Positions 7,214-47,492 of a stretch of DNA of 49,247 bases are shown here, one piece after another (positions within the stretch are counted from its first letter, which is position 1; each line of letters starts with the position of its first letter). A program made the position numbers and the translations under genes. This DNA comes from Candidatus Pacearchaeota archaeon (GTDB taxonomy: Archaea > Nanobdellota > Nanobdellia > Pacearchaeales > GW2011-AR1), in contig JACQLK010000022.1 in the NCBI GenBank assembly GCA_016204145.1, positions 1-49,247 on the forward strand, written 5' to 3'. The notes under the pieces were generated by a model. It was not told the DNA's origin, did no database searches, and was given only the letters and a program-made list of their open reading frames with translations.

Positions 7214-7306
7214 TGCCCCCACGAGGAGTCGAACCCCGAACACAACCTGTTTGCAAGAATTTTTCCTTGCCGCAAGGTCGTATTATATCCGTTTAACTAT
7301 GAGGGC
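7214..7306 (-). tRNA. tRNA-Arg(GCG) with 21-nt intron at 37/38 (7249-7269)
   Basis: Cloverleaf; CGACC-TTGCGG|intron|A-GGTTG; T arm GGTTCGACTCC; BHB central helix TTGC/GCAA. Confidence 0.9.
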
Positions 7307-16641: not shown

Positions 16642-16734
16642 TAGCCCCGCCCGGATTCGAACCGGGGTCACAGCCTTTCCATATTTCAAACAAATTTCAA
16701 AGGGCCGTATCCTTGACCGCTAGACTACGGGGCT
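16642..16734 (-). tRNA. tRNA-Gln(TTG) with 20-nt intron at 37/38 (16677-16696)
   Basis: A1-U72 acceptor AGCCCCG typical of archaeal Gln; CGGCC-CTTTGA|intron|A-GGCTG; GGTTCGAATCC. Confidence 0.9.
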
Positions 16735-17208: not shown

Positions 17209-17406
17209 ATGGCGTTTGGAAGATTTTTTTGGTTTTTGATTTGCCTTGCGTTCGGAGGATATCTCATCAATTATTCGCTGCAATTTTATCCCATAGACGA
17301 AGTTTTTTCCGGAATGAACAAATACGCAATCCTCATCGCCGGAGCGCTTCTAATCCTCGGCGGAATTAACCGCCTTCTTGCGAGAAAACACGGCAATTCT
17401 GAATAA
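17209..17406 (+). CDS. Small two-TM membrane protein
   Basis: TATA-like TTTAAATA about 20 nt upstream; two hydrophobic helices. Confidence 0.65.
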   Translation: MAFGRFFWFLICLAFGGYLINYSLQFYPIDEVFSGMNKYAILIAGALLILGGINRLLARKHGNSE

Positions 17407-17434: not shown

Positions 17435-19336
17435 ATGATGAAAAAAAGGGGGAGAAGAGTTTATTTTTCCGGAGAAAGTCCGCTTAAAAAAAACCGCGGA
17501 CAACTCACTATTTTTATAATAATTGCGATTGCAATCGTTTCAGCAGCAGTGTTATTTTTTGCATTAAGGGAAAACATTTTCAACGCAATAATCGTTCCGA
17601 AAGACCTGCAGCCGGTTTACAACACATTTTTAAGTTGCATACAAGACAGCGCTTCCGTCGGAATAAACGTTCTCGGTTCGCAAGGCGGCTACATTCAGTT
17701 GCCGGAATTTTCTCCTGGAAGCTCTCACACTCCTTTTTCATCGCAATTGAATTTTTTGGGAAATCCGATTCCTTATTGGCATTATGTTTCCGGAAACAAT
17801 ATTGAAAGGACGCAAATTCCTTCCAAAACAATAATGCAGAATCAGCTCGGGGAATTTCTTGACAGCAGAATCAGGGGATGCCGATTTGACGAATATTATG
17901 ACGAGGGCTTTCAAATTTTCGTAGGGGAGCCGAAGACAAGCGTGACAATAATGGACGACAGCGTAGAATTTTCTGTTGACGCGGAAATGTCAATAAGCAG
18001 AGAAGATGAAACTGCGCTCGTAAAAAATCACAAGGTGACGATTGATTCGGAAATCGGAAACCTGTACGACTCCGCGGTTAAAATTTACGAGTACGAGCAG
18101 GACAATTTATTCCTTGAAAATTACGGAGTTGACGTTTTGCGGCTGTACGCTCCGGTCGACGGAGTTGAATTGAAATGCTCTCCTTTGGTTTGGAACGCAA
18201 ACGACGTTTTTGAAAAACTGAAAGAAGCGATAGAGTCAAACACTCTTGCAATAAAAACAAAAAGCGGATTGCTCTCTGCAAATGCGGGCGACAAATATTT
18301 CTTCCCGGGAATTTCCGTTCCGCACGACGTGAGATTTTTGAATTCAAGAAATTGGTCGAGCGCGTTCGAAGTGAGTCCTTCAGAGGGAGCAATTCTTTTG
18401 TCGACTCCGGTCGGAACCCAGCCCGGTTTAGGAGCATTGGGATTTTGCTATGTTCCGTATCATTTTGTTTACAGCATGAAATATCCGGTTCTCGTGCAGA
18501 TTTCAGGGAAAAAAGAAACATTCCAGTTTCCCGTTGCAGTAGTCATTCAAGGAAATGTTCCAAGAAAGGCGATGGAAAATTCCACCGCGATTCAGGTGGA
18601 TATTCCGGAATTGTGCAGCCAGAAAAACACTTTGGCAGAGGTTTCTGTTTTTGACGAGAATTTGAATCCGATAAACGCAAATGTTTCCTACTCGTGCGCC
18701 GGAACCGAATGCAGGATAGGAGAAACGTCGTCGGGAAAAGTTTCCGCAATGTTCCCGCAATGCGTCAACGGATTTGTTATTGCAACAGCGGATGGATTTG
18801 AAGAGACGAAACAGCTTTATTCCGTCGTTGAAAACGCAAACGTTAATATTTTCATGAATCAAATTTACGATAAGAACGTAAATTTGAAAATCGACGGAAA
18901 GGATTACGAAGGGCAGGCGACGATAACCTTTGCCTCTGAAGAGGGAAATTCAAGAACCGTCGTTTATCCGGAGCGAAAAACAGTCAAACTCTCGGAAGGG
19001 CAATACGAAGTTCAGGTTTATGTTTACAGGAATTCTTCGCTGACAATAGGCGCGAAAACCGTCGAGGAATGCGTCGACGTTCCTCAAACGGGAGTCGGCG
19101 GATTTTTCGGATTCAACAGGGAGAAATGCTTCAAGATTGACTTTCCGGCGGAGGTTGTTTCAAACGCGCTTGCCGGAGGAGGGAGTCAGAATTATTACGT
19201 TTTGGAATCAGAGCTTAAAAATTCAAACATCATTGAAATAAACGTAGACGGATTGCCTTTGCCGACGTCGATAGATCAGTTGCAACAAAATTATATTTTG
19301 CTTGAGGACAAGGGGTTGAAAATAAATTTCAGATAA
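17435..19336 (+). CDS. Large pilin-like protein with class III signal peptide
   Basis: KKNRG|QLTIFIII plus hydrophobic helix; Cys-rich body; TATA box at ~17409-17418. Confidence 0.75.
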   Translation: MMKKRGRRVYFSGESPLKKNRGQLTIFIIIAIAIVSAAVLFFALRENIFNAIIVPKDLQPVYNTFLSCIQDSASVGINVLGSQGGYIQLPEFSPGSSHTPFSSQLNFLGNPIPYWHYVSGNNIERTQIPSKTIMQNQLGEFLDSRIRGCRFDEYYDEGFQIFVGEPKTSVTIMDDSVEFSVDAEMSISREDETALVKNHKVTIDSEIGNLYDSAVKIYEYEQDNLFLENYGVDVLRLYAPVDGVELKCSPLVWNANDVFEKLKEAIESNTLAIKTKSGLLSANAGDKYFFPGISVPHDVRFLNSRNWSSAFEVSPSEGAILLSTPVGTQPGLGALGFCYVPYHFVYSMKYPVLVQISGKKETFQFPVAVVIQGNVPRKAMENSTAIQVDIPELCSQKNTLAEVSVFDENLNPINANVSYSCAGTECRIGETSSGKVSAMFPQCVNGFVIATADGFEETKQLYSVVENANVNIFMNQIYDKNVNLKIDGKDYEGQATITFASEEGNSRTVVYPERKTVKLSEGQYEVQVYVYRNSSLTIGAKTVEECVDVPQTGVGGFFGFNREKCFKIDFPAEVVSNALAGGGSQNYYVLESELKNSNIIEINVDGLPLPTSIDQLQQNYILLEDKGLKINFR

Positions 19337-19345
19337 AATGATAAG

Positions 19346-22300
19346 ATGAAAATTTTTAATTTTGCATGGATTTTTTTATTTGTAATAATCTTCGCGGGAT
19401 TTGCAAGCGCGGATTATTTTCTTTCAAGTCCTCAAATCACAATGCCCGGAAGCGCGTTCAATTACGGCGGAAATCTTCCTCTCGGTCCGGCGTTCAATTC
19501 AAATTCATGCGGCGCGGGGCAGGATTTCATAATTCAAGTCGCGCCGTTCGGATGTTCTCCAAGCGTTGTGAGAAGCGATTTGCTTGAAGAGCAGAATGTT
19601 CCCGTTTTCTGCCAATTGATGGCGACAAAGTTAAATCCCTTGATTAACGTGCAGTCGATTGATTCAATTTCTTTCACAGGAAATTATCCCAATGAAGTTG
19701 CAGGAATAGGATTTAATCCGGCAAGAGCGGCATTGAGTTCAGCAGGACAGACATTTTTGAATTCTCCCGTGACAAACAACATCGGCTATGCCGTGATTGT
19801 CTTGAAACAGCAGCAAAACGAATCGTCAATGCCCGAATTTGTTTCAGGAAACCTCACGGCAAACATAAGATACAACATACAAAACGCGTTCGGCGTCGGA
19901 GCGGCGAATTATTTTGTTCCGGAATTGACAGAGGAAGAATGGGCGCAGAGATACGCGCAATACGGTTTCATGAACGGAAGGGGTTTTGTGAAAGCGGACA
20001 ACGTAAACGCGGACAGCGCGACAATTTCGCTTTATCTCGACAAAACAAATCGTCTTTCAACATTTAATTTGAGAAAAGGGGAAACATCCGGAGACGCTTA
20101 TCTTCCCGGATTTTATTGCGCCGCTTCGCTGAATGTGAGATTGGAAGGGGTTGAAAATCCCAATACAAGAGCGAGAATTGAAATCAACGGGGAAATAATT
20201 CAGGCGGGAGTCGGAGAGAGATTTCTTAATAATGCGTGCGTTGTTTCATCACCGCCGCAAAAAAGAGGAATGAGCGAGAGCGTTGATATCTCTTGCAGAA
20301 CAGACAGCGGAAACGAAAGAATCAATTTGATTATCGCGCCGAGGATAAAATTAAACGTCGATAATACCGAGAAGGCGTTCGGCGTCGGAGATTACATCGG
20401 AGAGGCGGCTGACAAAAAAAGCATTTATCTCGGATACATCGGAACAAAAGGCGACAGCAGAGACAAAAAGGACTTGTTTGTTTATTTTATTTCAATGCCG
20501 CAGAGAAAAGACAAATTGTCAAACGATGAAATTTCCAGAACAAATACAATTGTAAATTTGATAAGATACAATAAAATCACGACGATTGGCGTCATAGATG
20601 TTCCGCTTAACGCTTTCAAGAATTTTGCAGGAGCGTCAAATCTTGTTTATGAATTTTTCAAGGGGAACGAGTTTGTTTATCTTACTTCCTCGGAAAACGA
20701 GTTTTCCTTTGGCGGAAAAAAAATAAAACTCGTTGATTTCGTCGACGGGCAGGATATTAATTTCCCGGACGCGCAAACATCCGAGAACTACAAAAAAGCG
20801 ATGAGCGATTACAGGGAAATAATAAACAAATATCCCGGCGAGAAAGAGCCGAACAGCCAGGAGGCGTTTGGCAAACTTGCTTTAATCGAGGCGATAAAAC
20901 TTGCAAGTTCTGTTGAGCAGAAGAAAACATTGAGAGAATTGTGCGACGAATTCAGCCAAAAATATCCCGACGCAAAAGCAGAAGCTGTTAATCATTGCGA
21001 CTCTGTGAGAATTTCAAGTTCGGAATCCGCGACGCGCAAATTGCTCATCAACGGAAACGTAAAAGAAATTTCTTTTGACGGAATTTATCAGCCGTCTTTG
21101 GAAGAGTACAGCGCGGAGGTAAAAGTCACTTATCCCGACGGAAGAACCTCGGATATTTTCACGCTGACAAAAGACCAGACAATTATCCTAAATGAAACCA
21201 AAAACGAGTACGTTCAGCTTGTTTCATTGAGCGACAATTACGCGACAATTCAAATAAATCTTGTTCCGACGACAATAAGCGAGGCGTATACCGCTCCTTT
21301 TATCGCAAGCGTTAAAAACATCAACAAGGGAATTCAGGAAACGTTCGGAAGCGGCTACACGTTTACTCTTACGCAGATTAACCTGAAAAAGGTCGCGAAG
21401 GTTTCAATAATTCCCAACATAAAAAATTCCGGGACAACCGGGAATTTCAGCTTTACGGTAGGGATTGAAAAAAGAGCGATACAACTTACCCCTGATCAAA
21501 TTAGAGAGAGAATCCAATCGCTTAACGAATCAATTTCAGAATGGCAGGGAACTTCGGAGAAAGTCGGACAGGTTGTCAAAGGGTTTAATGCCGCATGCCT
21601 TGCCGTCGGAACCGCAATCACAGTGAAAAATCTTTTCCAAGGATTTGACGGAAAGGCGATTGCAAGACAAGAGGTAATGAGAAGCCCCGGGGGATGGATT
21701 GATTCCTGCACGCAAAAAGTAAATGAAAAACAATTCAGCACCGTTGATTCTTGTTTGCTGAAATATTCAGACGATATCGAAAAGGACGTGGGAATTGTCG
21801 AGGGAATAATAAAAAATCAAAAGCCGATAACAAATGAAAATGCGAATATTCGTTTAGCGGAAATAAGAAATTCGCTCGGAGATAAAATAGAAAATCCCAA
21901 TAAAAAAGGAGAATTCATCGAGCTTTCGGAGAATTCCGACGCGGGAGAGGCGTTTACAAACGAGGGAATAAAAAACGGAAGAATCACTTTGAGTCAGGCA
22001 AGGGATTTGGAGCGCCTTAATTCGGAGTTGAATTCCGCAGCGAGCCAGCAGGATAAAGAACTTGCGCAAAGAAAAATTTATTCAATTCTTTCGCAGATAA
22101 AAGCGAATTCAGAACAGCTTTCGTTGTACAATTCAATTCAGAGCGAATTAAATAAAGCAAACATCGGGGAGATAGGCGTTGTCGCTTACGGCGGAAAAAA
22201 CGCGATTGAAGGAAGTTATACCGGCGGGATAATAAAAGGAGACAAAATAATCGGCGCGGGAATTTCCGACGGCAAAGATTATCCCGCGCAAGTTGTTGTT

Positions 22301-25300
22301 TACAACAACAAAAAATATCTTTTGACATTGCAGGGCGCGGGTTCTTCTTATGCCATAAACAAGGTTTATCAATACGACGGAGCCGATTCAAATAGAATTT
22401 ATATCAAGCCGGTTGAGCCGGGGGAAGAAAATACAATAAGGGGCGCGTTTTCAAAATTCACAAGATACGATTTAGGATCTTATCAAAATAATTTCATAAA
22501 TCCAAGAGTAAGATATTTTGAAACAGAGCCGTACAAAGGACTGCCCGCAATTGTTCCTTTTGATACGAAAGCCGGATGGTATGTCGCGACAAAGCAAATC
22601 GTCGGCGGGCTTGCGGGAAGCGTTTCAGGGCAGGGAGGAATACGGGCTTATGATGATTCCGGACGACTGACAAGTTTTTATTTGTGCAACGTCGGACAAA
22701 ACGGAAGGGAAGAGTTCAATTCAAATCTCGGCGACGACGTTTGCAGAAGTTTTAATCCGGGTGTTTCGCAACTTCAGGGAACTTTCCAGGGTTTGAGCGA
22801 GAGCGACACAAATCGGATAATGTCCCGTGCTGTGCAGGCGGTGCAGGAAGCATCGACGCAATACAAACCGAGTTTGAGCGCGAGCGGGACGGTAAAAGTG
22901 CTGAATGAATTCATTCCCGTCGGGGAGCCGTCGATAAACACGCCGGACATTCAATGCCAGGATTTTATGTCTCCGAAAGAATGCAATATTTTATTCAATG
23001 TTTGCGATCCTGTTGTTTGTCCCGCGAGCAGATGCAATCTCGGCGGAGCATATAATGTTCCGGATGTAATTCAGTCGGGAATAATCGGAAGCGTTGCATT
23101 ATGTTTGCCAAATGCGAGAGAAAACATCGCGGTCCCAATTTGTCTTTCAGGAGTGAAGGCGGGAATAGACAGTTTTGTTTCCGTGGAGAAAAATTATCGG
23201 GATTGTTTGCAGACAAATCTCGACACGGGGAAGACGGTGGGAATTTGCGACCAGATACACAGCGTTTATCTCTGCGATTTCTTTTGGAGTCAGGCGCAGC
23301 CGATGGCGAAAGTAATTGTTCCAAAAATATTTGAAAAAATTCTCGGGCAAACGGGAAGGGGCGGCGGAGAATATTTGGGAGTTGCAAGCGCATGGGAAAA
23401 TGCGGGAAGGTCGATTGATTACATGACGCAATATTACGGCGCGGCGTCGTTCGAGGCGTTCAGGACGGGAATAATAAAAGAAGTCGGAAACGCTGTTTGC
23501 AGAAATTTTGTATCTGCGGCTTATCCTTCGAACATGAAATTTTTTGATTCATTGATAGAACCACAGTCGCCGCCGCAATATACCGCGTGGTTTTCAGAGC
23601 AGGCATACGCGACGTCGACAAATCCTCCGACTTCAAGATATAAAGTATTTTATCATATTTACGCGGGAGAAAACACAGGACAGGCGGGAAAAAATGCCGG
23701 AGCGTTTTACAGCGTTTATTTGAAATCGCCGAGCGGAAGTTCGTTTTACCAGTATTCTCCGACGCTGAATGTCGCCTCGGGATTTATTTCTCCGGCGGAC
23801 TATGCGTCAGAGACAAAGGATTTCACAGCTCCTTCGGGATACAAGGAACTTTGCATAAACGTGAACGGACAGGAGAATTGCGGATTCAATCAGGTCTCAA
23901 CCGACTTTGGACTGAAATATCTTCAGGACTCGTATGCGCAGAGCCAAATAAATCAGACGAGCATTCAATCGGAAAAGGATTGCGTTTCGGGAACTCCGTT
24001 TAATTTGTATTCCCTTGCAAATCCAAACATTCAGGAAGGAGCGACTCAATTTGTAGACCCTGCAATTTACAATCAGCAAATCGTCCGCGTTTGCTCTACC
24101 GAGAATCCCGGGAAAGGAACCGATCCGCATTCGGGAACAGAGAACAGCAGATGGATTCCCGTCGGAAATTGCGAGCCAACGGGAAAGTTGAAATGTTATC
24201 TCGATACAAAGAGCATCGGCAGCGCGATACAAGGCGCGGGCTTGAGGAACGAAACGCTTCAAGAACTTTCGAGATATTATTCAACGCAATTGCAAAATCA
24301 GACGCAGTTTGATTTCAATTCCGAATTGGAAAAAATAATCAAACTTGACAACAGCGGAAAAATAAGCCACATCACTCCGAGTTTGATTTCAAAAGCTATT
24401 CTCAACTTTCAGAAAGCAAAGTTCCTTTTGCTCAGGGGAAACGCCTACGGAGAAATTGCAAAGGGATTGTTTGAGAAATTGAAATTGACCACAACGCCGA
24501 GCGGAACGACGGCAGCAGAAGGAGTTATTTGCACGCCTGCTCCAGGAATAACTACAACAACTCCTTCAACGTCGGGAACGGGAATATTTAACATTCAAAA
24601 CATTGCATACGAATATCCGGTTTTAACTTTAAATAATCCCGGGTTTTTCGGAGGAAAAGATTATTATTTCAAATATTCAAATCAAAACAAAAATTGGGAT
24701 TGGTATTGGTCAAATGACAACTCGCAATGGACTGTCGTTGACAGTGATAATCTGCCCGAAAGAGGAAGCACATTAAGAGGGTTGGATGTAGACCTTATTG
24801 TAAATTTAAGGGGAGTTTCTTATGATGATGGAGTTGTAAATATAATTTCCACTGCGAAGAGTTTGCAAAACGATTTGTCAACGGAAAATGTCAAATTTTC
24901 AAACAGTGACAATTTATTCACGGTTTCCCAGAAAGAAAGCGGATTGCCAAGCAGCATTTATCTGAAATATGAAAATAGCAAATGGTTTTGGACATACAGT
25001 TCAACACAAAACGACTTGATTGATTTGTCCGACTTCACAAATTCCAAACTTAGCGTTGTGACAAATTACAACAAGCAAATATTTGCAAGCATTGCTGGAA
25101 AAAGTTATGAGGAAGGAGTCAAGATGATTTTCAGCATTGATGTCAAGGAGAAAATTATTTCAACAACCAGTGAAAGTTTGCCGAGCAATTCTGAACTGTC
25201 GAAAATTCCGGACAGCGGAGTTATTTGCACGCCTGTTCCAGGAACAACTACAACAACTCCTTCAACTTCGGGAACGGGAACATTCAATATTCAAAATATT

Positions 25301-26731
25301 GCATATGAATATCCGATTTTAACTTTAAACAATCCCGGATTTTTTGGAGGACTGACGCAAAAAACATATTACTTCAAATATTCAAATCAGAACAACAACT
25401 GGGCGTGGTATTGGTCAAATGACAATTCGCAATGGACTTCTGTTGACAGCAGTAATTTACCGACGAGAGCCAGCAATTTAAGAGGATTGGATACGGATCT
25501 TATCACAAACTTAAGGGGGGTTTCTTACGAGGACGGAGTTGCACAAATAATTTCAACGGCAAACAGTTTGCAAAATGATTTGTCAACAGAAAATGTCAAA
25601 TTTTCATATAGTGATAATTTATTTACAATTAATCAAAAAGAAGGCGGACTACCAAACAGCATTTATCTGAAATATGAAAACAGCAAATGGTTCTGGACAT
25701 ACAGTTCAACGCAAAACGACTGGATTGATTTGTCAGATTTCGCGAATTCAAAATTGAGCGTCGTGACAAATTATAACAAACAAATATTTGCAAGCATTGC
25801 CGGAAAGAATTTTAGAGACGGAGTAAAAATTATTTTCAGCATTGACGTAAAACAAAAAATAGTTGGAGCTAGCGGCGCTTCTGGAAGTCAGAAGTTAAGC
25901 AACTTGAATCTCGGAACTTGCACAACACGACAAGAATGCCAGAAAGCAATCGGCAACGGAATAATAAAAATCGCAAGAGATGTAAAAAACGCGGCGAACA
26001 TTCCCGATATTGATTCAACAATAAAAGCAGAAGGAGTCGCGGAAAATTTTGAATGTCTTGTACTGCAAATAGCAATGCAGGAAAGTTCGCTGCAGCATTG
26101 CCAAAATATTCAGCAAAATTTGGACCCTGTTTACTGCGACGGAGCCAAGGACAAAGTAAAAACGTTGAGCACTGCAAATGAAAATAGTTTTGGGGTTATG
26201 CAAATTAACACAAATGTTCATGCGGTTCCCGCGCAATATTTTGAAGAAGGGGTTTATTATGCTTCTTATAATATTTTTATTAAAAGCTATCTTGCCTATG
26301 GGCAGGAAGGAATGGCATTTAGACCGACTGGGACGACTTATTCAGGATGGAAAGCCGCGATAAGAAGTTACAATGGATGGGGTTACGGCGGAGATAATAA
26401 TTATGTTGAAAAAATAACAACAGATAGAAAACTTGAAATTCAGCAAATGTTTTCAGACGTTTGCGGCGGCTCAAATGTTGCGCCGATAAAAACTTTCCCG
26501 CAAGTTCCCGCGCCTTGGAGCGTTCAATCCGCGCTTGATTCCATTCAAACAAAGACGGGAAAATATTCAAATAATAAAGAATTCATAGACCAATTGTATC
26601 AGGACGGGATTTTGACGCAACCGGAATATATTGAAATCAGCGGCGACGGGTTTTTTAATCTGGAGGAGGACATGAATTACGTGAAAAATATTTTGCAGAA
26701 TAAGTTGGTTGAGCAGAGGAAAGGAACTTAA
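19346..26731 (+). CDS. Giant secreted Cys-rich protein (2461 aa) with internal duplication and C-terminal lytic transglycosylase (SLT/lysozyme-like) domain
   Basis: Signal peptide; Cys-rich core; IAMQES, SFGVMQIN, AIRSYNG, YVEKI motifs at ~26050-26420. Confidence 0.75.
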   Translation: MKIFNFAWIFLFVIIFAGFASADYFLSSPQITMPGSAFNYGGNLPLGPAFNSNSCGAGQDFIIQVAPFGCSPSVVRSDLLEEQNVPVFCQLMATKLNPLINVQSIDSISFTGNYPNEVAGIGFNPARAALSSAGQTFLNSPVTNNIGYAVIVLKQQQNESSMPEFVSGNLTANIRYNIQNAFGVGAANYFVPELTEEEWAQRYAQYGFMNGRGFVKADNVNADSATISLYLDKTNRLSTFNLRKGETSGDAYLPGFYCAASLNVRLEGVENPNTRARIEINGEIIQAGVGERFLNNACVVSSPPQKRGMSESVDISCRTDSGNERINLIIAPRIKLNVDNTEKAFGVGDYIGEAADKKSIYLGYIGTKGDSRDKKDLFVYFISMPQRKDKLSNDEISRTNTIVNLIRYNKITTIGVIDVPLNAFKNFAGASNLVYEFFKGNEFVYLTSSENEFSFGGKKIKLVDFVDGQDINFPDAQTSENYKKAMSDYREIINKYPGEKEPNSQEAFGKLALIEAIKLASSVEQKKTLRELCDEFSQKYPDAKAEAVNHCDSVRISSSESATRKLLINGNVKEISFDGIYQPSLEEYSAEVKVTYPDGRTSDIFTLTKDQTIILNETKNEYVQLVSLSDNYATIQINLVPTTISEAYTAPFIASVKNINKGIQETFGSGYTFTLTQINLKKVAKVSIIPNIKNSGTTGNFSFTVGIEKRAIQLTPDQIRERIQSLNESISEWQGTSEKVGQVVKGFNAACLAVGTAITVKNLFQGFDGKAIARQEVMRSPGGWIDSCTQKVNEKQFSTVDSCLLKYSDDIEKDVGIVEGIIKNQKPITNENANIRLAEIRNSLGDKIENPNKKGEFIELSENSDAGEAFTNEGIKNGRITLSQARDLERLNSELNSAASQQDKELAQRKIYSILSQIKANSEQLSLYNSIQSELNKANIGEIGVVAYGGKNAIEGSYTGGIIKGDKIIGAGISDGKDYPAQVVVYNNKKYLLTLQGAGSSYAINKVYQYDGADSNRIYIKPVEPGEENTIRGAFSKFTRYDLGSYQNNFINPRVRYFETEPYKGLPAIVPFDTKAGWYVATKQIVGGLAGSVSGQGGIRAYDDSGRLTSFYLCNVGQNGREEFNSNLGDDVCRSFNPGVSQLQGTFQGLSESDTNRIMSRAVQAVQEASTQYKPSLSASGTVKVLNEFIPVGEPSINTPDIQCQDFMSPKECNILFNVCDPVVCPASRCNLGGAYNVPDVIQSGIIGSVALCLPNARENIAVPICLSGVKAGIDSFVSVEKNYRDCLQTNLDTGKTVGICDQIHSVYLCDFFWSQAQPMAKVIVPKIFEKILGQTGRGGGEYLGVASAWENAGRSIDYMTQYYGAASFEAFRTGIIKEVGNAVCRNFVSAAYPSNMKFFDSLIEPQSPPQYTAWFSEQAYATSTNPPTSRYKVFYHIYAGENTGQAGKNAGAFYSVYLKSPSGSSFYQYSPTLNVASGFISPADYASETKDFTAPSGYKELCINVNGQENCGFNQVSTDFGLKYLQDSYAQSQINQTSIQSEKDCVSGTPFNLYSLANPNIQEGATQFVDPAIYNQQIVRVCSTENPGKGTDPHSGTENSRWIPVGNCEPTGKLKCYLDTKSIGSAIQGAGLRNETLQELSRYYSTQLQNQTQFDFNSELEKIIKLDNSGKISHITPSLISKAILNFQKAKFLLLRGNAYGEIAKGLFEKLKLTTTPSGTTAAEGVICTPAPGITTTTPSTSGTGIFNIQNIAYEYPVLTLNNPGFFGGKDYYFKYSNQNKNWDWYWSNDNSQWTVVDSDNLPERGSTLRGLDVDLIVNLRGVSYDDGVVNIISTAKSLQNDLSTENVKFSNSDNLFTVSQKESGLPSSIYLKYENSKWFWTYSSTQNDLIDLSDFTNSKLSVVTNYNKQIFASIAGKSYEEGVKMIFSIDVKEKIISTTSESLPSNSELSKIPDSGVICTPVPGTTTTTPSTSGTGTFNIQNIAYEYPILTLNNPGFFGGLTQKTYYFKYSNQNNNWAWYWSNDNSQWTSVDSSNLPTRASNLRGLDTDLITNLRGVSYEDGVAQIISTANSLQNDLSTENVKFSYSDNLFTINQKEGGLPNSIYLKYENSKWFWTYSSTQNDWIDLSDFANSKLSVVTNYNKQIFASIAGKNFRDGVKIIFSIDVKQKIVGASGASGSQKLSNLNLGTCTTRQECQKAIGNGIIKIARDVKNAANIPDIDSTIKAEGVAENFECLVLQIAMQESSLQHCQNIQQNLDPVYCDGAKDKVKTLSTANENSFGVMQINTNVHAVPAQYFEEGVYYASYNIFIKSYLAYGQEGMAFRPTGTTYSGWKAAIRSYNGWGYGGDNNYVEKITTDRKLEIQQMFSDVCGGSNVAPIKTFPQVPAPWSVQSALDSIQTKTGKYSNNKEFIDQLYQDGILTQPEYIEISGDGFFNLEEDMNYVKNILQNKLVEQRKGT
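24521..25860 (+). repeat. Intragenic tandem duplication, period 696 nt (232 aa)
   Basis: GVICTP.PG.TTTTPSTSGTG begins at 24521 and 25217; both copies end in IFSIDVK.KI. Confidence 0.95.
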
Positions 26732-28546: not shown

Positions 28547-29476
28547 TCACTTCGCTCTCGCCTGAAGCTCTTTTTCCTTTTGTTTTATTTTTTCTTCGAG
28601 TTTTAATTTTTCAATCAATTCTTTGTAACGGTTTCTTATTGTGACTTCCGTTATTCCGGCGATGTCAGCGACTTCCCTTTGGGTTTTTTTCTCGTCGTTC
28701 ATCAATGCCGCGACGTACAAAGCGGCGGCGGAAATTCCCGCAGGGCCTCTTCCAGAAGTCAATTCAACGTCTTCCGCATTTTTCAAAATTTTCAGCGCGT
28801 CATTTTGCGTTTTCGGCGACAATTTTAAAACAGAGGAAAATCTCGCAATGTAATCCTTCGGAGAAGATTGTTTTACTTTTATCCCGAGTTTTCTTATTAT
28901 AAATCTGTAAGTTCTTCCGATCTCTTTTCTTTCAACGTCTGAAGCGGTTGCCATTTCGTCGAGAGTTCTTGGAATATTGTAACTTCTGCATGCGGTGTAC
29001 AAGCACGCGGCGATTACCGACTCCATGCTCCTCCCCCTGACCAAACCTCTTTGAAGAACATAATTGTAAACGCGCGCCGCCTCGTCTCTCACGACGTTCG
29101 GAAGATTCAAATAAGACGCGATGACTCTCAATTCCGCCATTGCAAGACGGAGATTTCTCTCAATGCTTGTTGAAACACGCTCCTGCCATTTTTTCAGGCG
29201 GAGGAATTTTCTTGTTTGTCCCGCTTCCAATTTGTAAATATCAGAGATTTCACCGACGTTTGTTGTAAGACCTTTGTCGAATTTTTGTATGCTTATCGGG
29301 GCGCCTCCGCGGCCTTTTTTTTCCGACTTGTCGAATTTTCCCGCCAAATCCACGCCGGTATCGACCATCTTCTCCTCGACGACGAGACCGCAGTCGTTGC
29401 AAATAATCTCTCCAAGATTTGCGTCATAAGTCAAATTTGCGCTTCCGCATTCGGGACATTTTTTTACAAAGGCCAT
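28547..29476 (-). CDS. tfb: Transcription initiation factor IIB
   Basis: CPECG..C.DCG zinc ribbon, ERNLRLA, GLVRGRS, TQREVADIAGITEVTIRNRYKE. Confidence 0.97.
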   Translation of the reverse strand: MAFVKKCPECGSANLTYDANLGEIICNDCGLVVEEKMVDTGVDLAGKFDKSEKKGRGGAPISIQKFDKGLTTNVGEISDIYKLEAGQTRKFLRLKKWQERVSTSIERNLRLAMAELRVIASYLNLPNVVRDEAARVYNYVLQRGLVRGRSMESVIAACLYTACRSYNIPRTLDEMATASDVERKEIGRTYRFIIRKLGIKVKQSSPKDYIARFSSVLKLSPKTQNDALKILKNAEDVELTSGRGPAGISAAALYVAALMNDEKKTQREVADIAGITEVTIRNRYKELIEKLKLEEKIKQKEKELQARAK

Positions 29477-33472: not shown

Positions 33473-36400
33473 ATGGGAGGGACTCGTTTAGCAAAAGCCA
33501 GAATAGCGGAGCTTAAGAAAAGGATAGCTCATGCAGAGCAAAAGAAAAAAGAATTTTCAGATTATTTGCGCGGATTGAAACAAAAATATCATCGCGGCGA
33601 AATTTCATATTCGTCTTTCCTTGAACATTTTTATCAAAAGCGAAACGGGCTTAATCTGAAGGAGTGGCTTCTTCATTTTGACGACTATATCAAGGATTGC
33701 AAAAAGGAAATAAGAAAAGAGAGAATAAAACTCCTTGGGAACTATTCTGTGTTTGCATTTTTGTCTTTAGTTTTTATTTCAATTTTCTTCTTGGCTTTTT
33801 CCAATATGAACATCGGCTTCACGGGCTTTGCAATTCAGGAAGGAGAAAATATTTCCGCAAATCAATCGATTTCAGAAGAAATAAACGGAGAGGTTCAAAA
33901 TGAAACGAGTCCTTCCCATCAGATTGGACAAGAACCTCTCCCGCCTTCTGAGAACATAACTGCAAACGAAAGTTCTATTTCAGGAAATTTCTCTTCGGGA
34001 AATTTAACAGAACAAAATGCGACAGAAATTAATCAAACGCAAATCAACGAAACGCAAAATATTTCCGCGGAAAACGAAACAATTCCGATTCAAAACATCA
34101 CAAATCAAACGACTCAAAACATTGCAGAACAGAATATAACGCAACAAAACGTCTCAATCGTTGAAGATGCCACAATAAACACGACACAAGTAACTCCAAA
34201 AATAAAACTTGGCGAGAAAGTAAAATGGAAAAAAACAATTTCCAGTAATGAAATCGGAAACGCCACAATAATTCTCCCGAAAAATTCAGAAAACATAACA
34301 ATAACAAAAATAAAAGAAAACAAAGAAGAAGACATAACTTCTTCAAGCTCCATAACGGGCGCGGTTGTCGGCGGTTCAAGAGAAAATTTCATTTTCCGAC
34401 TTTTAAAAAACATTTTTGGAAGAATAACGGGAAGAATCGTTGATGAAATCGCGAGGCAAAATGTAAGCGTTGAGGTTGAGATTGAAATTGACGAGATTCA
34501 AGCAGAATATGAAGTTGAATATGAGACGCCCGCGCCTTATTCTATTGAAGAAGACATTGCTTTTGGGAAAAGAGTAAAAATTTTCGGTCCCGACGCGGTT
34601 CATTATGAAAACGTTCTCGCTTTCACGAATATTTCTGAAAATTTGAATTTGAAAAATCCAAGCAAGATAAAAATAAAATGGATTGAGCAAAATATTTACA
34701 TAAATCCGGATTCTGTTCTTGACTCGGATGAAAACGGAATTTACGATTATGTCGAGTGGAATGTTCCGAGTTTGAGCGAGCAGACGTTTGAAATAATTGT
34801 AATCACGAAAGCCGAGCATCTTGATGAAAATTATAATTTTGTTTCCGACATTTATGAACAGGTTAAAGAACTGGATGGGATTTGGAGCGAAGAAATTCCA
34901 GATGCACATTATGTTCGCGTAACGTTTGAAAAAAATCTTACAAATGAAAATGATATAACAATTTATCCGCGAATTACAAGCGGAAATCCGACTATTGAGG
35001 TTTATGAGGAAAACGGAAATGATTTGGTTGCAGAATTTTCTTCGCTGAATGAAAACGAATACAATAAAGTTTTTTTGACGAATCTTATTTCTGAATCTCA
35101 AAATGTTTTCGATTTGAAAGTCGTTGGTGGAACAATTCAAATAGATTACATTGTTGACCCTGTAGAAGTCGGATTTTTTGACGATTTTGAAGGAACATTG
35201 GCAAAATGGGGAACGACGTCTTGGGTTGTGACTACAGCGCAATTTAAAAACGGCGCGCAGTCTCTGCAATCTGCAAACGGGCAGGAAGGAGACATCATCA
35301 CAGACCCGTTTGACACATCCAACGCAACTTCAATCAATATAAGTTTTTGGTTCAGAGACAACAATTTGGATGCGGGCGATATAGATTTTTATTTTTTTAA
35401 CGGCACAAGTTCCGCTTATGAGTTGCAGACAGAAACTCTTGAAACTGAAACGGCAGAAGATATTTGGACATTTAAAAGTTTCACAACTTCAAACAGCGAA
35501 TTCTTCATAAGCAATTTCAGCGTAAGATTCAATGCTAATTTGGGAAACGGAGAAAATTTCTGGGTTGATGACTTTTCAGTAAACAAGACGACTGTCGTCG
35601 TGGATTCAACATCTCCAGATGTCACAATAAACGTTCCACAGAACACGACATATCATGTGCATTTTGATTTGCCATTTAATTTCAATGTTTCTTTAAATGA
35701 AGCTGGAAATGCATTATATTCCCTTGACAATGGTTTTACAAATATTACAATGAACACAACAGACAATTTGAATTTTAATGCGACTCTTCTGGATTTGACT
35801 GAAGGAAGTTACACTTTCCAAGTTTATGCAAACGATACTGCTGGAAATGCAAATTATTCGGAAAGTGTTGTTTTTGATTTAGTCATGGATAATATGCTTG
35901 TCAACGGAACAACCGTTGCTCCAGACGGAATGCCGACAAATACCACTTTTGTAATTATAGATGAATCTTCTTCAAATGTTGTTTACAATGAAACAAACGA
36001 TACACACGAGACGTTGATTCCTTTGAACTCAACTTACACAATTGAAGTTCTTCCTTTGGAAATAGATTCCGTAGACAAAGTTGAATTTAATGACGTTAAT
36101 TTTTCTGAAATAAATGATACTGTCACAAGCATTGTTAAAATAAATGAAAACGAAACTCTTGGAAATTTCAGTACTGTATTTTCCGTAAGACCGCAGTTTG
36201 AAACATTTGAAAACGGAACCTTATTTTTTACCGCGAAAGCGAACGCTTTGTTCAGATGCGGAGAGTGGAATTACACTATGGAATCTTGCCAGGGGAACTG
36301 GAGTTTGTTCATGAACGATTTGATTCCAGGAGAAGAATACAATTTCACATTTTCCGGAACAAGGGGTTACGGAATAATAAACATTACAAATGCGACACAT

Positions 36401-39400
36401 CTTGACTCAAACAGGAGTTACATATCCGACATTTATGACTATGTAAAAGAATATGACGGCAATTGGTCTGAAATAATTCCCGACGGGCATTACGTTCGCG
36501 TCGTCTTTCAAGAAAATCTGACCTCGGGCAACGATATTACAATCGTGCCGAGAAATCTTTCCGGAGATGCGAGAGTTGAGGTTTATGAAAACGGGCAGGA
36601 CGTTTTGCTTTCGGAATTTTATCCTTTGATTGAAGGAGAATTAAATCAAATTCTTCTTACAAATCTTACAGGAACGCAAGATGTATTTGACTTGCGTGTT
36701 TCGGGGAACGATGTTGAATTTGATTACATCGTCGACCCAAACATCACTGTCATTGATACTCAATCCAAAGACGTTGGGATAACTCCGATTAACAGCACCG
36801 CATTTGTAATAGTCTGGAATAATATCTCCTCTGATGTTGCTTCAAACGGTTCATTCTTTAAAATAATGACAACAACAGGAAGCATTGTCCTTGATACTGT
36901 TAAAGTAGACGAAAATAATCCGAGAGTTTCCGTCGCCGCCCTCAATTCAACAACATTTGCCCTTGTTTATGTGAACGCATCAACAGCGGATGAATTAAGA
37001 ACAGTATGGACTACTGACGGAACGAAAGTTTTTGGTCCGACAACAGATGACGGCTCTATAGGGGTTGTTGGTTGGGATGTTTCTGCGACGGCGATAAATG
37101 AAACAGCTTATGTTTCCTGCTATGTTGACATGGGAACAGACGGAGATGGGGACGTTCACATAATAAATTATAATGCCGCATCGTCTGAAATAGGGCTTAA
37201 CGGAGACATTGACGCCAACCAAAATTATGCAAATCTTTTTGATTGCGCGACCATAAATTCAACGGCGTGGGCGGGAGTAACGTATGATGCAGTAGACGCC
37301 GATGTCGGATTGGCGGTTTATAATGACAGGGGAACTGCGATAACTGCGCTTACTCTCATAGATACAAGTGTAGGAACAGGCGGAGCGCAGGTTTCTGTTA
37401 CTGGATTGAATGGCGAGAATTTTGCAATGGTTTGGTTTACAAATCTGAGCACTGCAGACACAAACATAAGCGCAACGGTAAGAACTGCAAACAATGGCGT
37501 TGTAACGGCAAAAACAAGAATTGTAAACATGCCCGGAAATTGGACAAGAATTGATGCTGCAACAGTGGCGAATGACACGGGAGATTATCTTGTTCTCGGC
37601 TGGATTAATTTAACAACAAAAGGTGTTTTGGCTCAAACATTCAAACAAGATTTGACTCCCGCTTCCGGAATAATAACAATTGATACCGCCATGAACAGGG
37701 AATACCCTTTGTTTGACATAATTGGAAAAACAACCACGACATCTTTATGCAATGAGACATTTGCTATTGCCTATACAAATTTCACAAATTCTACTGTTGT
37801 AAAAACATATTGGATGAATGGAAGCATTTGGAATGGAGTTTGTCCTGCCCCCGCGGACAACACAAAACCCGCAATTTCAATTTTTTCTCCCGCAAACTTG
37901 ACAAACACGACGGATAATTTGATTGATATTCTCGCGACATATTCCGACGCCGGCGGGCTTTCTTCCGCGTGGTATAACAATGATACTCATGCCGTGGCAA
38001 ACAAATCTCTTGGAACCGTCGGTTCATTTACAAATATAACAAATCTGACTTGGGGCGAGGGCGGACACAATGTGACGGTTTATGTGAGCGACACTGCGGG
38101 AAATGAAAATTGGACTTCTGTAACATTTGAAGTTGATTCAATAAAGCCCGCGATAGAAATTGTTTCTCCTGCAATAAATAATTCAAACAGTAGCGATACG
38201 GCTCTTGATATTACTTATACTACATCCGATGCGCATCTGTTTAATTTTTGGTATGCAAATGATACGACAACGGGCGCAAACAAATCCCTTGGTGTCTTGG
38301 GAACATCATTTAACATCACGAATATAACTTGGGGCGAAGGAAAACATAATGTTACAATTTACGCAAATGATACTTTTGGAAACGTAAATCAAACAAGAAT
38401 CAGCTTCACGATTGATTCAACAAAACCTCTTGTAACAATAGCAAATCCGACGACAAACAATACAAACACAAGCGACAATCTTCTCGATATAAATTACATA
38501 CCGACGGACACTTTTACGCAAATAGATTCTGCATGGTATACCAACAATTCAGGAAATATAAACAAATCCCTTGGAACACTCGGCTCTTTGACAAATATTT
38601 CAAACATAACTTGGGGCGAAGGAAAACACAACGTTACAATATACACAAATGACACCGCCGGAAACGTGAATTTCACGACGATAAGTTTTACTGTTGACAC
38701 CGTAATCCCTGGAATTTCAATTGATTCCCCAAGCAACCTGACAAATTCAAGCAATCCTGGTCTTGATGTAAATTTCATAGCATCTGATTCCGGTTCCGGG
38801 TTGTTCAATTTTTGGTATGCAAACGACACCTATTCTGTTGCAAACAAATCCCTTGGTGTCTTGGGAACATCATTTAACATCACGAATATAACTTGGGGCG
38901 AAGGAAATCATAATGTAACGATCTGGGCAAATGATTCTGCTGGAAATTACAATTTTGCGTCTGTTACATTTGAAGTTGATTCAATAAAGCCCGCGATAGA
39001 AATTGTTTCTCCGACGGGGAACAACACAAACACAAGCGACACCGCTCTTGATGTTACTTACACGACTTCGGATTTGCATCTTTTCAACTTTTGGTATAAC
39101 AATGATACTCATGCCGCGGCAAACAAATCTCTCGGTGTCTTGGGAACTTCATTCAACATCACAAACATAACATGGGGCGAGGGAAAGCATAATGTCACAA
39201 TTTATTCAAACGACACGTTTGGAAATGTGAATTTCACGACGACAAGTTTCACAATAGATTCAACTCTTCCTTTGATAACAATAACAAATCCCGCAAGCAA
39301 TAACACAAACACAAGCGACAATGGTTTGGATGTAAATTATGTTGCAACCGACACTTTCACGCAAATCAGTTCGGCATGGTATACAAATAATTCTGGGAAC

Positions 39401-41473
39401 ATAAACAAATCTCTCGGTGTTTTGGGTTCTTTGACAAATATTTCAAACATAACATGGGGCGAAGGAAAACACAATGTAACGATTTACACAAACGATTCGG
39501 CAGGAAACGTGAATTTCACGACGATAAGTTTTACAATCGACACAATACAACCAACAATCTCCATCGCATCTCCGTCAAATAATTCAAACAGCAGCGATAC
39601 CGGTTTGGATGTTCTTTACATTCCAACAGACGCGGGAAGCGGTTTGTTTAACTTCTGGTACAACAACGACACTTATACTGCCGCAAATAAAAGTTTAGGT
39701 GTTTTAGGGACTTCATTTAATATCACAAATCTCACATGGGGCGAGGGAAAACATAATGTCACAATCTGGGCAAACGATTCTGCTGGAAATTACAATTTCG
39801 CGTCGATAAGTTTTACGATTGACACTATAAATCCTGATTTAAATATAACTTATCCGATTAACAACTCGGTTGTTTCCGATATTAATGCAGACATAAATTA
39901 CACTCGCTTGGATTCAGGAAGCGGTTTGTTTAATTGTTGGTATTCAAATGACACATATCTTGCAAATACAACGCTTTCAAATTGTGAAAATGTAACCGCG
40001 GTTATATGGGGGGAAGGGGCGCACAACGCCACAATTTGGGCGAATGATTCAAGTGGAAATTTAAACAAGACATCTGTGACTTTTACAATATCCCTAAATA
40101 ATCCCCCTGAGATAAGAAATATTTACAATGACACCGCGACCATAATTGCCGCCGCTTCCGGAATCAGTTCTGGACCTTTGAACACTTCATTGATAGTTAA
40201 CTTTTCTGTTTATGACGCTAACGGCGTTGCAAATATGGATAACTCAACAGCGACGGTAAATTTCTCAAAATCAGGCGAGGCATTGAGACAAAGTCCGACT
40301 TGCGATCAGGTTGAAGTAGGCACAAATGTCGCAAATTACAGTTGCAATGTAACAATGTCTTGGTATGACGGGGCGGGAACCTGGGCGGTTCAGGCGTTTA
40401 TTTCAGATTTGGACAGCAACGACGCTAAAAACAATTCCGCGAATTTCTCTGTTGGCGAGACAACAGGATTTGAATCCGGTTCTTTGACTTTTCCATTCTT
40501 ATCTCCGGGGTTAAAAAATCAAACCTCTGCTGTCGCGTTACGGCTGAACAATACAGGAAACAAGAACATGGCTGCAAACACGACGCAGGTAAACGCGACA
40601 AACCTTCGCGGAGAGATAACCTCTGCATTTGCCATATGGTCCGGAAACATTTCTACAAGTTGGGATTCAACAACGCTTGAGGCGTGCGACACAAGCGGCG
40701 GCGATGGAATAAGGGCAAATAATATGTCTTCCGGCAACTATGTAAATATCACCACTGCTAATTTGACAAAAGGAAATTATTTTGTCAATGACGGAAGCAC
40801 GGGACAGGAGGACTTTTATTTCTGCATAAAAACAGTCGGAGCTGAATTGACTTCGCAGCAATATTCCACTGCAAACGAAGGCGCGTGGACAATAAGAATC
40901 CTTCTCGCATTTGTCGCAATTCCAAGAAAGAGGAAAAAGAAAACTGAAAAAGACAAATTGCTCGAAACAATCTCTCTGCTTGTTGACGAATTCAAGGAAA
41001 AGCACCGATTAAGCAAAGAAGACACTATGAATCTTGTCATAAAAGAAATAAGAAAAAAATATAAAATAAACAGAAGTGAAATTCTTGAACTTTCTGAGGT
41101 TAAGAAAATTTCAATTCCCGCGACAATATTCTCAGAGAAAATGGGAATTTTGGAATCGCTTGTGAAATACATGAAGGAAAATCTTGAAATGAGCTACAAG
41201 GAAATTGCCGAGGAAATCAACAGGGATGAGAGGACAATTTGGACATCTTACAAAAACGCCGTCGAGAAACAAAAAGAAGTCATAGAAGAAACCGAAACAA
41301 ACATAACAATTCCCCTTTCAATTTTCAAAGACAGCAAATCCACAATACTTGAATCAATTGTTGTTTATTTGAAGGAAAACGGAATGAGATATTCGGAAAT
41401 CGGCGAATTGCTCAATCGGGACCAGAGAAACATATGGACTATTTACGACAGAGCCGCAAAGAAAAAAAGATAG
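33473..41473 (+). CDS. Giant membrane-anchored Ig-repeat surface glycoprotein (2666 aa) with C-terminal tandem HTH-like domains
   Basis: Basic N-terminal domain, TM at about aa 92-112, sequon-rich body, eight WGEG.HN.T...ND..GN repeats, two ES.V.Y.KEN..Y.EI...NRD.R.IWT.Y units. Confidence 0.8.
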   Translation: MGGTRLAKARIAELKKRIAHAEQKKKEFSDYLRGLKQKYHRGEISYSSFLEHFYQKRNGLNLKEWLLHFDDYIKDCKKEIRKERIKLLGNYSVFAFLSLVFISIFFLAFSNMNIGFTGFAIQEGENISANQSISEEINGEVQNETSPSHQIGQEPLPPSENITANESSISGNFSSGNLTEQNATEINQTQINETQNISAENETIPIQNITNQTTQNIAEQNITQQNVSIVEDATINTTQVTPKIKLGEKVKWKKTISSNEIGNATIILPKNSENITITKIKENKEEDITSSSSITGAVVGGSRENFIFRLLKNIFGRITGRIVDEIARQNVSVEVEIEIDEIQAEYEVEYETPAPYSIEEDIAFGKRVKIFGPDAVHYENVLAFTNISENLNLKNPSKIKIKWIEQNIYINPDSVLDSDENGIYDYVEWNVPSLSEQTFEIIVITKAEHLDENYNFVSDIYEQVKELDGIWSEEIPDAHYVRVTFEKNLTNENDITIYPRITSGNPTIEVYEENGNDLVAEFSSLNENEYNKVFLTNLISESQNVFDLKVVGGTIQIDYIVDPVEVGFFDDFEGTLAKWGTTSWVVTTAQFKNGAQSLQSANGQEGDIITDPFDTSNATSINISFWFRDNNLDAGDIDFYFFNGTSSAYELQTETLETETAEDIWTFKSFTTSNSEFFISNFSVRFNANLGNGENFWVDDFSVNKTTVVVDSTSPDVTINVPQNTTYHVHFDLPFNFNVSLNEAGNALYSLDNGFTNITMNTTDNLNFNATLLDLTEGSYTFQVYANDTAGNANYSESVVFDLVMDNMLVNGTTVAPDGMPTNTTFVIIDESSSNVVYNETNDTHETLIPLNSTYTIEVLPLEIDSVDKVEFNDVNFSEINDTVTSIVKINENETLGNFSTVFSVRPQFETFENGTLFFTAKANALFRCGEWNYTMESCQGNWSLFMNDLIPGEEYNFTFSGTRGYGIINITNATHLDSNRSYISDIYDYVKEYDGNWSEIIPDGHYVRVVFQENLTSGNDITIVPRNLSGDARVEVYENGQDVLLSEFYPLIEGELNQILLTNLTGTQDVFDLRVSGNDVEFDYIVDPNITVIDTQSKDVGITPINSTAFVIVWNNISSDVASNGSFFKIMTTTGSIVLDTVKVDENNPRVSVAALNSTTFALVYVNASTADELRTVWTTDGTKVFGPTTDDGSIGVVGWDVSATAINETAYVSCYVDMGTDGDGDVHIINYNAASSEIGLNGDIDANQNYANLFDCATINSTAWAGVTYDAVDADVGLAVYNDRGTAITALTLIDTSVGTGGAQVSVTGLNGENFAMVWFTNLSTADTNISATVRTANNGVVTAKTRIVNMPGNWTRIDAATVANDTGDYLVLGWINLTTKGVLAQTFKQDLTPASGIITIDTAMNREYPLFDIIGKTTTTSLCNETFAIAYTNFTNSTVVKTYWMNGSIWNGVCPAPADNTKPAISIFSPANLTNTTDNLIDILATYSDAGGLSSAWYNNDTHAVANKSLGTVGSFTNITNLTWGEGGHNVTVYVSDTAGNENWTSVTFEVDSIKPAIEIVSPAINNSNSSDTALDITYTTSDAHLFNFWYANDTTTGANKSLGVLGTSFNITNITWGEGKHNVTIYANDTFGNVNQTRISFTIDSTKPLVTIANPTTNNTNTSDNLLDINYIPTDTFTQIDSAWYTNNSGNINKSLGTLGSLTNISNITWGEGKHNVTIYTNDTAGNVNFTTISFTVDTVIPGISIDSPSNLTNSSNPGLDVNFIASDSGSGLFNFWYANDTYSVANKSLGVLGTSFNITNITWGEGNHNVTIWANDSAGNYNFASVTFEVDSIKPAIEIVSPTGNNTNTSDTALDVTYTTSDLHLFNFWYNNDTHAAANKSLGVLGTSFNITNITWGEGKHNVTIYSNDTFGNVNFTTTSFTIDSTLPLITITNPASNNTNTSDNGLDVNYVATDTFTQISSAWYTNNSGNINKSLGVLGSLTNISNITWGEGKHNVTIYTNDSAGNVNFTTISFTIDTIQPTISIASPSNNSNSSDTGLDVLYIPTDAGSGLFNFWYNNDTYTAANKSLGVLGTSFNITNLTWGEGKHNVTIWANDSAGNYNFASISFTIDTINPDLNITYPINNSVVSDINADINYTRLDSGSGLFNCWYSNDTYLANTTLSNCENVTAVIWGEGAHNATIWANDSSGNLNKTSVTFTISLNNPPEIRNIYNDTATIIAAASGISSGPLNTSLIVNFSVYDANGVANMDNSTATVNFSKSGEALRQSPTCDQVEVGTNVANYSCNVTMSWYDGAGTWAVQAFISDLDSNDAKNNSANFSVGETTGFESGSLTFPFLSPGLKNQTSAVALRLNNTGNKNMAANTTQVNATNLRGEITSAFAIWSGNISTSWDSTTLEACDTSGGDGIRANNMSSGNYVNITTANLTKGNYFVNDGSTGQEDFYFCIKTVGAELTSQQYSTANEGAWTIRILLAFVAIPRKRKKKTEKDKLLETISLLVDEFKEKHRLSKEDTMNLVIKEIRKKYKINRSEILELSEVKKISIPATIFSEKMGILESLVKYMKENLEMSYKEIAEEINRDERTIWTSYKNAVEKQKEVIEETETNITIPLSIFKDSKSTILESIVVYLKENGMRYSEIGELLNRDQRNIWTIYDRAAKKKR
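34795..36738 (+). repeat. Duplicated ~120-aa domain (about 34795-35160 and 36374-36738)
   Basis: A.HLD.N....SDIY..VKE.DG.WSE.IPD.HYVRV.F...DYIVDP present twice. Confidence 0.85.
37856..40090 (+). repeat. Eight tandem Ig-like repeats (~94 aa) with 843-nt higher-order period
   Basis: WGEG codons start at 38051, 38330, 38612, 38894, 39173, 39455, 39737, 40007. Confidence 0.92.
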
Positions 41474-47364: not shown

Positions 47365-47492
47365 CGCCCGAGACAGGATTTGAACCTGCGACCCCCTGCT
47401 TCCCTCTTCTCTCCAAAAAGGAGATGGTGCGGAAGAACCTTGGTTCTTCTGGTTAGAAGGCAGGTGCTCTCTCCAGGCTGAGCTACCCGGGC
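47365..47492 (-). tRNA. tRNA-Arg(TCT) with 53-nt intron at 37/38 (47401-47453)
   Basis: CCTGC-CTTCTA|intron|A-GCAGG; GGTTCAAATCC; central helix CTTC/GAGG. Confidence 0.9.

Follow-up and report, generated by a model that had tools for sequence, protein, structure and literature searches.

The DNA analyzed here (the window) is a stretch of 49,247 nucleotides (nt) of contig JACQLK010000022.1 from a Candidatus Pacearchaeota archaeon (assembly GCA_016204145.1). At 19346-26731 (forward strand, as are all features below unless stated otherwise) it carries an open reading frame (ORF) that encodes, in a single frame, a giant protein of 2461 residues (P0001), near whose C-terminus lies the element in question, a divergent domain of the GH23/SLT lysozyme-fold type; 9 nt upstream ends the gene of its presumed partner (17435-19336), which translates from its ATG into 633 residues. 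The giant protein starts with a hydrophobic stretch (residues 1-23, 19346-19414) that ends in FAGFASA/DY; residues 1-21 form its top hydrophobic window, and elsewhere a hydrophobicity scan found no transmembrane-like segment scoring >1.5. The N-terminus is read as a signal peptide or signal anchor, with a putative ASA/DY cleavage site picked out by eye. A preliminary description of this DNA had called the product a giant secreted archaeal protein; export and archaeal origin are borne out by the signal-like segment, by a TFIIB gene in the window (28547-29476, reverse strand; Pfam TFIIB 9e-48 and its zinc ribbon) and by the homologues of the giant protein (502 proteins of 1353-4307 residues at E<=1e-3), the named ones of which all come from metagenome-assembled genomes (MAGs) of Candidatus Pacearchaeota or Nanoarchaeota. 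Three related loci recovered from reference genomes with the single domain as query bear the record title Candidatus Woesearchaeota archaeon.

The conserved core of the giant protein spans about residues 1-1700 (19346-24445), with homologues that align from the N-terminus onward over 44-80% of the query, and gave only sub-threshold matches against Pfam. A sample of 60 other genomes from the taxonomic family of this archaeon, with each genus represented once, contained residues 1101-1700 in 54 cases, mostly with one match each; among family genomes that are at least 90% complete, 10 of 10 (own genome counted) have them. The core had been described as Cys-rich, which holds to a modest degree: the protein has 38 Cys in its 2461 residues, 11 of them clustered at residues 1204-1310 (22955-23275). 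To call it a delivery scaffold is a guess. Beyond the core lie two tandem copies of an aromatic-rich module of about 232 residues (24521-25216 and 25217-25897), recognized in a repeat search as a direct DNA repeat with 79-91% identity and 696-705 nt spacing; Tandem Repeats Finder, run with a longest period of 500, missed this 696-nt repeat. The module is rich in Trp and Tyr and possibly glycan-binding, and its two copies stem from a recent duplication within the giant gene. The GH23/SLT-type domain follows (about residues 2185-2377, 25898-26470, six Cys), and after it come 86 further residues (26471-26728), so of the earlier placement of the domain at the tip the position near the C-terminus stands and the very tip does not. 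These last residues are modeled as a four-helix module (predicted local distance difference test, pLDDT, 89.3) with the consensus GKYS.NK.FID.LY.D..LT..EY.EI.GEG.FN.EEDM.YV, which is also widespread, at times repeated, among proteins without a GH23 domain (hits confined to residues ~216-292 of the 293-residue C-terminal query). The end module belongs to no Pfam family and its best fold matches were unrelated helical proteins (Z 5.0 at most); the ESM Atlas held no usable match for it or for the 232-residue module.

Family 1 lytic transglycosylases are characterized by an E-S pair at the end of a helix, followed by G-L-M-Q, A-Y-N-x-G and a downstream Tyr. The giant ORF contains, in one frame, IAMQES (Glu codon GAA at 26081-26083), SFGVMQIN (from 26186), AAIRSYNG (from 26354) and YVEKI (from 26402), i.e., the E-S, GxMQ, YNG and YVE motifs in the order generally given for GH23/SLT enzymes, just as the preliminary description had reported. 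With the last 293 residues as query, an exhaustive HMMER search returned 178 proteins at E<=1e-3 (101 at E<=1e-10), with most matches close to the C-terminus in proteins about 2000-3000 residues long. An alignment of 37 rows, to which all column counts below refer, was made from the query and 36 shorter matches (fewer than about 570 residues) picked from the best 150 of the 178; pairwise identity to the query is 29-50%. Among ten domain homologues that were looked up, several short ones come from contigs just 1-3 kb long and could be pieces of giant proteins; one, on a 1.7-kb contig, bears the label Patescibacteria, which is not taken to indicate a bacterial origin. The putative catalytic position, E2246, is E in 35/37 rows and the Ser after it is kept in 30/37; the GxMQ columns read G in 37/37, M in 36/37 and Q in 37/37, the YNG columns Y in 37/37, N in 37/37 and G in 36/37, and the Tyr of YVE is present in 34/37. 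A chance pattern was considered and rejected, the motifs being conserved across the domain and its 36 homologues. E2246 is position 62 of the domain, and in the structural model QES (residues 2245-2247) closes a helix at positions 51-63 that ends with E62-S63. The assignment of this Glu is also consistent with the Pfam SLT profile (PF01464): in the homologue P0073 the match starts at residue 3 and profile position 20, which puts its QES Glu at about profile position 24; a canonical SLT protein of the same genome (match 120-204 on profile 16-100) has its QES Glu at the same profile position, and the QES of P0073 shares an alignment column with that of the giant protein.

A feature of the domain is an insert between the catalytic Glu and GVMQ (26090-26185), flanked by C2252 and C2264 and found by comparison of spacings: 37 residues separate the Glu from the Gly of GxMQ in the giant protein, against about 17 between the 'qES' Glu and the Gly of GLMQ in 22 core homologues with a canonical SLT tip. 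The two flanking Cys are kept in 34/37 and 37/37 rows, which suggests that the insert would form a disulfide-closed loop.

Homology to known GH23 proteins was established through the relatives of the domain. At E<=0.1, 8 sequences of the 37-row alignment match Pfam SLT (lowest E 3.5e-10), and at least two of them exceed its gathering score of 21.3 bits: P0102 (39.9 bits), whose BLASTP alignment with the query shows 31% identity across 193 residues (E 2e-18), and P0073 (31 bits). The family profile matches six goose-type lysozyme sequences of the PDB (E 0.0023-0.045) over a span from GxMQ to YVE, with GVMQ aligned to GLMQ, YN to YN and YVE to a Tyr near the end. A hidden Markov model (HMM) of the domain, built from the trimmed alignment and run on the best 119 of the 502 full-length homologues of the giant protein, found the whole domain in 32 of them (E<=1e-25) and partial matches, at about HMM positions 86-175, in 16 more (E 1e-14 to 1e-6). 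Precomputed annotation assigns PF01464 to 13 of these 16 proteins, and the divergent domain and canonical SLT are therefore mutually recognizable.

The structure-prediction check proposed along with the preliminary description did find a lysozyme-like fold. The AlphaFold2 model of the domain, calculated from the 37-row alignment, has a mean pLDDT of 95.4 and a predicted template modeling score of 0.92. In a VIA-align search of 48,161 PDB representatives, which is independent of Foldseek, it matched Pseudomonas aeruginosa Slt (5o2n) best, with Z 10.1 and a root-mean-square deviation of 2.7 over 121 aligned residues, followed by MltF (Z 9.7), MltC (Z 9.4), a fungal muramidase (Z 9.1), MltE (Z 9.0), salmon g-type lysozyme (Z 8.8), the GH23 chitinase 3w6b and a second fungal GH23-like muramidase (both Z 8.7), a GH124 cellulase (Z 8.3), phiKZ gp144 and MltD (both Z 8.2) and Slt70 (Z 7.7); the first 24 rows consist entirely of peptidoglycan hydrolases and other lysozyme-like glycosidases. 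The alignments with Slt, MltF, MltC and MltE comprise 120-136 residues and indicate that the model has the lysozyme-like alpha-plus-beta fold. Foldseek against the PDB put similar kinds of proteins on top, although weakly (best E 0.05), the top five rows being g-type lysozymes. As predicted, the fold is good evidence, not overwhelming by itself, and it gains weight because it agrees with the conservation, the profile and the transitive homology; the four together support a lysozyme-fold domain of the GH23/SLT type.

Several results weigh against this assignment or against its functional extension. The HMMER comparison with PF01464 that had been suggested as a check failed on the giant sequence itself: neither the whole protein nor its last 293 residues gave an SLT match at E<=1 in Pfam, and a six-frame PF01464 search of the source genome matched three loci, the tip of the giant protein not being among them. 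Searches of the giant sequence against NCBIfam and PHROGs returned no SLT or other family, and phmmer against all PDB sequences returned nothing at E<=10. BLASTP of the domain against the two canonical SLT proteins of the genome and against the canonical SLT tip of P0175 gave nothing significant, and the probabilities that hhalign assigned to the domain alignment with individual SLT sequences stayed <1%, which is uninformative, single sequences being poor profiles as targets. On the structural side, no Foldseek match in the PDB reached E<=0.001, and Z values of 9-10 are just moderately above the 7-8 that models with no clear match usually reach as their best. As to function, the chitinase 3w6b and the GH124 cellulase score nearly as high as the best matches, and the fold therefore does not fix the substrate; the insert of about 20 residues beside the catalytic Glu could, moreover, alter or block the cleft. 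This same insert is the likely reason for the failure of Pfam SLT on the domain. Thus, the lytic transglycosylase domain of the preliminary description survives as a GH23/SLT lysozyme fold seen in homologues, profile and predicted structure, and not as a direct match to PF01464.

A survey of the C-termini of core homologues, likewise suggested earlier, revealed variable, wall-directed tips: canonical SLT, the divergent GH23 domain, Amidase_3 (2e-39), VanY D-Ala-D-Ala carboxypeptidase (5e-31), an OmpA-type domain (4e-8) and a matrixin-type Peptidase_M10 (8e-9) are found on different members of the giant family. P0167 has both the divergent GH23 domain (residues 1739-1932) and VanY (2595-2728). 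Precomputed PF01464 is carried by 21 of the 119 best core homologues and by 0 of the 32 with the divergent tip, and the count of GH23 tips among the 119 rises from 21 by Pfam to 56 by Pfam or the domain HMM. The divergent tip occurs in 5/27 genomes of the family and in 9/401 genomes of a phylum sample (own genome counted), three of the nine being weak partial matches. Among giants of 3100-3800 residues, P0007, P0014 and P0028 combine the divergent GH23 domain with a second GxMQ...YNA stretch far downstream; their precomputed Pfam annotation includes PF07759, with ankyrin or Amidase_3 in two.

The partner directly upstream of the giant gene begins with KKNRGQ and then a hydrophobic stretch, which by eye looks like an archaeal prepilin-type signal; its product belongs to no Pfam family. 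In 5/5 related genomes the giant gene is immediately preceded by an orthologue of the partner; these were chosen for a match to the domain and all belong to one taxonomic family, and are therefore not independent. Just upstream of the partner, a 65-residue ORF with two hydrophobic segments (17209-17406) may share the unit.

We consider it probable that the locus encodes a giant exported DPANN protein whose GH23 domain cleaves bacterial peptidoglycan, probably as a lytic transglycosylase, and that acts with the partner. The protein, of a Pacearchaeota/Woesearchaeota-type DPANN archaeon, consists of a presumed signal or anchor, the core of about 1700 residues, the two 232-residue modules, the GH23 domain and the helical end; in the company of the upstream gene product, it would either stay on the archaeal surface or leave it. 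The GH23 domain would most likely bind the glycan strand of peptidoglycan and cut the bond between N-acetylmuramic acid (MurNAc) and N-acetylglucosamine, E2246 serving as its only acid/base and the chemistry probably being that of a lytic transglycosylase. Murein as the substrate is favored circumstantially, and best, by the wall modules of the sister giants.

The reaction type is the point at which a different enzyme has to be weighed, namely a goose-lysozyme-type hydrolytic muramidase, which would have the same fold and substrate, add water and release reducing MurNAc. Among solved structures, the family profile significantly matches goose-type lysozymes alone, they fill the top five rows of Foldseek, and the two fungal GH23-like muramidases stand high in the fold search. 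In goose-type lysozymes, hydrolysis is assisted by the Asp residues of GD and MQVD, neither of which is found in the giant-protein domain: the Asp after MQV faces Asn in the divergent family (N in 29/37 rows, D in 1/37), and the Asp of GD faces N in the giant protein (D in 13/37 rows of the family). Judged from these residues, Asn in place of both Asp speaks in favor of a single-Glu transglycosylase chemistry; lytic transglycosylases also have the top structural scores, though rows within 1 Z unit are tied. A hydrolytic muramidase is therefore unlikely in our judgment, although well worth keeping in mind.

With the lytic transglycosylase still preferred, its target and its activity may be asked about. 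The substrate could be a glycan other than murein, such as chitin or chito-oligosaccharides, a glycan of an archaeal host or the own envelope of the cell, and the presence of a GH23 chitinase and a GH124 cellulase among the top fold matches and of the Cys-flanked insert near the presumed cleft would fit this, as would the archaeal identity of the DPANN hosts known from culture (PMC8204110). The murein-peptide modules Amidase_3 and VanY on sister giants, the joining of VanY to the very same divergent GH23 domain in P0167, and the conserved motifs, which are those of murein-cleaving GH23 enzymes, point the other way. Pseudomurein has beta-1,3 bonds, which lysozymes do not cut, and this too argues against a non-murein target, which is quite improbable on balance. 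Still more improbable, to the point of being hardly credible, is a catalytically dead module serving an adhesin that grips peptidoglycan and does not cut it; the great length and the repeats of this surface-type protein make a setting in which such a module might be expected, and the insert could occlude the cleft, but retention of the Glu in 35/37 and of its flanking Ser in 30/37 sequences at just 29-50% identity is what one expects of an active site that is kept functional.

Proteins of this kind have been described before. According to PMC8204110 (Castelle 2021), fam00969 comprises giant, extracellular murein-like lytic transglycosylase proteins of Pacearchaeota and Woesearchaeota, of about 2000-3000 residues, for which attachment to bacterial cell walls is proposed, and earlier notes are cited there (Rinke 2013, Castelle 2015). 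The giant protein fits that description in size (2461 residues), N-terminal export signal, small-genome DPANN lineage and C-terminal murein-type glycosidase domain with the GH23 fold, and differs in that its tip is not detected by Pfam SLT. It is provisionally assigned to fam00969 because it shares its core with SLT-annotated Pacearchaeota proteins, some core homologues of 47-50% identity being named 'transglycosylase SLT domain-containing protein [Candidatus Pacearchaeota archaeon]'; it is, then, a further member of an already described kind. PMC9723730 (Vigneron 2022) reports large GH23 lytic murein transglycosylases in Woesearchaeota MAGs and reads them as predatory tools; these resemble the present case as large GH23 proteins of DPANN archaea that are read as aimed at bacterial walls, but were found by CAZy/Pfam-type annotation, which the tip of our giant protein escapes as regards Pfam. 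According to two further papers, large GH23 proteins also occur in DPANN MAGs of oxygen-deficient zones (PMC10936187), and other archaeal peptidoglycan hydrolases have been shown experimentally to kill bacteria, the DPANN GH23 point being repeated (PMC12352652). The portions of PMC9723730, PMC10936187 and PMC12352652 that were available mention neither an upstream partner gene nor variable tips. The inference of bacterial contact has already been published for the giant family (PMC8204110, PMC9723730) and is therefore not new.

Compared with individual enzyme families, the domain shares with the family 1 lytic transglycosylases (Slt70/Slt, MltC, MltE, MltF, MltD; PF01464) the lysozyme-like fold (Z 7.7-10.1), the order of E-S, G-x-M-Q, Y-N-G and Y-V, and the Glu at a helix end; it differs from them by about 20 extra residues and a conserved Cys pair between the Glu and GxMQ, by its six Cys, by falling below every Pfam threshold, and by being archaeal and part of a multi-module giant. 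Goose-type lysozymes (153l, 3mgw, 4g9s; GH23 hydrolases) resemble it in profile (E 0.0023) and fold (Z 8.8), whereas they are eukaryotic, stand-alone proteins of 185 residues that have Asp where the domain has Asn after MQV.

To our knowledge archaea make no murein, and the retention of a presumably murein-cutting domain by a giant protein that is exported therefore points to physical interaction with bacteria; since few uncultured DPANN archaea have a known host, such a domain is one of few genomic clues. Tentatively, and with more doubt than confidence, the partner and the giant protein may be regarded as an organ of the whole DPANN family for attaching to and opening bacterial cells, with tips matched to host walls. 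If this were true, it would amount to cross-domain episymbiosis or predation by a unit present in nearly every genus of the family; the interchangeable tips (two GH23 types, amidase, VanY, OmpA-like and M10) would fit the wall chemistry of different bacterial hosts, and the Cys-loop GH23 tip that Pfam does not see would be one variant of host specificity. A modest addition made here is that one common tip type of the giant family is systematically missed by Pfam SLT; since the divergent tip escapes this model, surveys based on Pfam or CAZy undercount the wall-directed proteins of archaea.

The source assembly (34 contigs, 756,625 bases, 88% complete) was also inspected for murein metabolism. 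Synthesis of its own murein by this archaeon was rejected as an explanation, as no Mur_ligase_M, PBP transpeptidase or GT51 gene was found in the 88%-complete assembly, which does not prove their absence. Besides the giant protein, the genome encodes two canonical SLT proteins detected by the PF01464 search, one of 318 residues with a Tat-like signal (contig C28, L001:1147-2103, forward strand) and one of 451 residues with SLT and two LysM stretches (contig C5, L002:817-2172, reverse strand); the third PF01464 match, on contig C21, is weak.

The 2666-residue product of a second giant ORF in the window (33473-41473) contains Big_13 Ig-like stretches, seven in all (1.6e-23), besides a Big_3_4 domain; its C-terminus has a Sigma70_r4_2/helix-turn-helix match (residues 2567-2598, 4.3e-6, just above the cut-off), which is odd for a surface-type protein. 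The N-terminus of a 615-residue protein (8805-10652) resembles a signal, and its C-terminus is a transmembrane tail whose last residues are GRKK; this protein abounds in N-x-S/T sequons, matches Big_13 weakly and looks like a glycosylated surface protein of the S-layer type. Two tRNA matches on the reverse strand, at 16642-16734 (93 nt) and 47365-47492 (128 nt), were found by Rfam only and not by ARAGORN; because they are longer than ordinary tRNA, both are probably intron-bearing archaeal tRNA genes. The tRNA-Pro that ARAGORN predicts at 7214-7306 is likewise 93 nt long.

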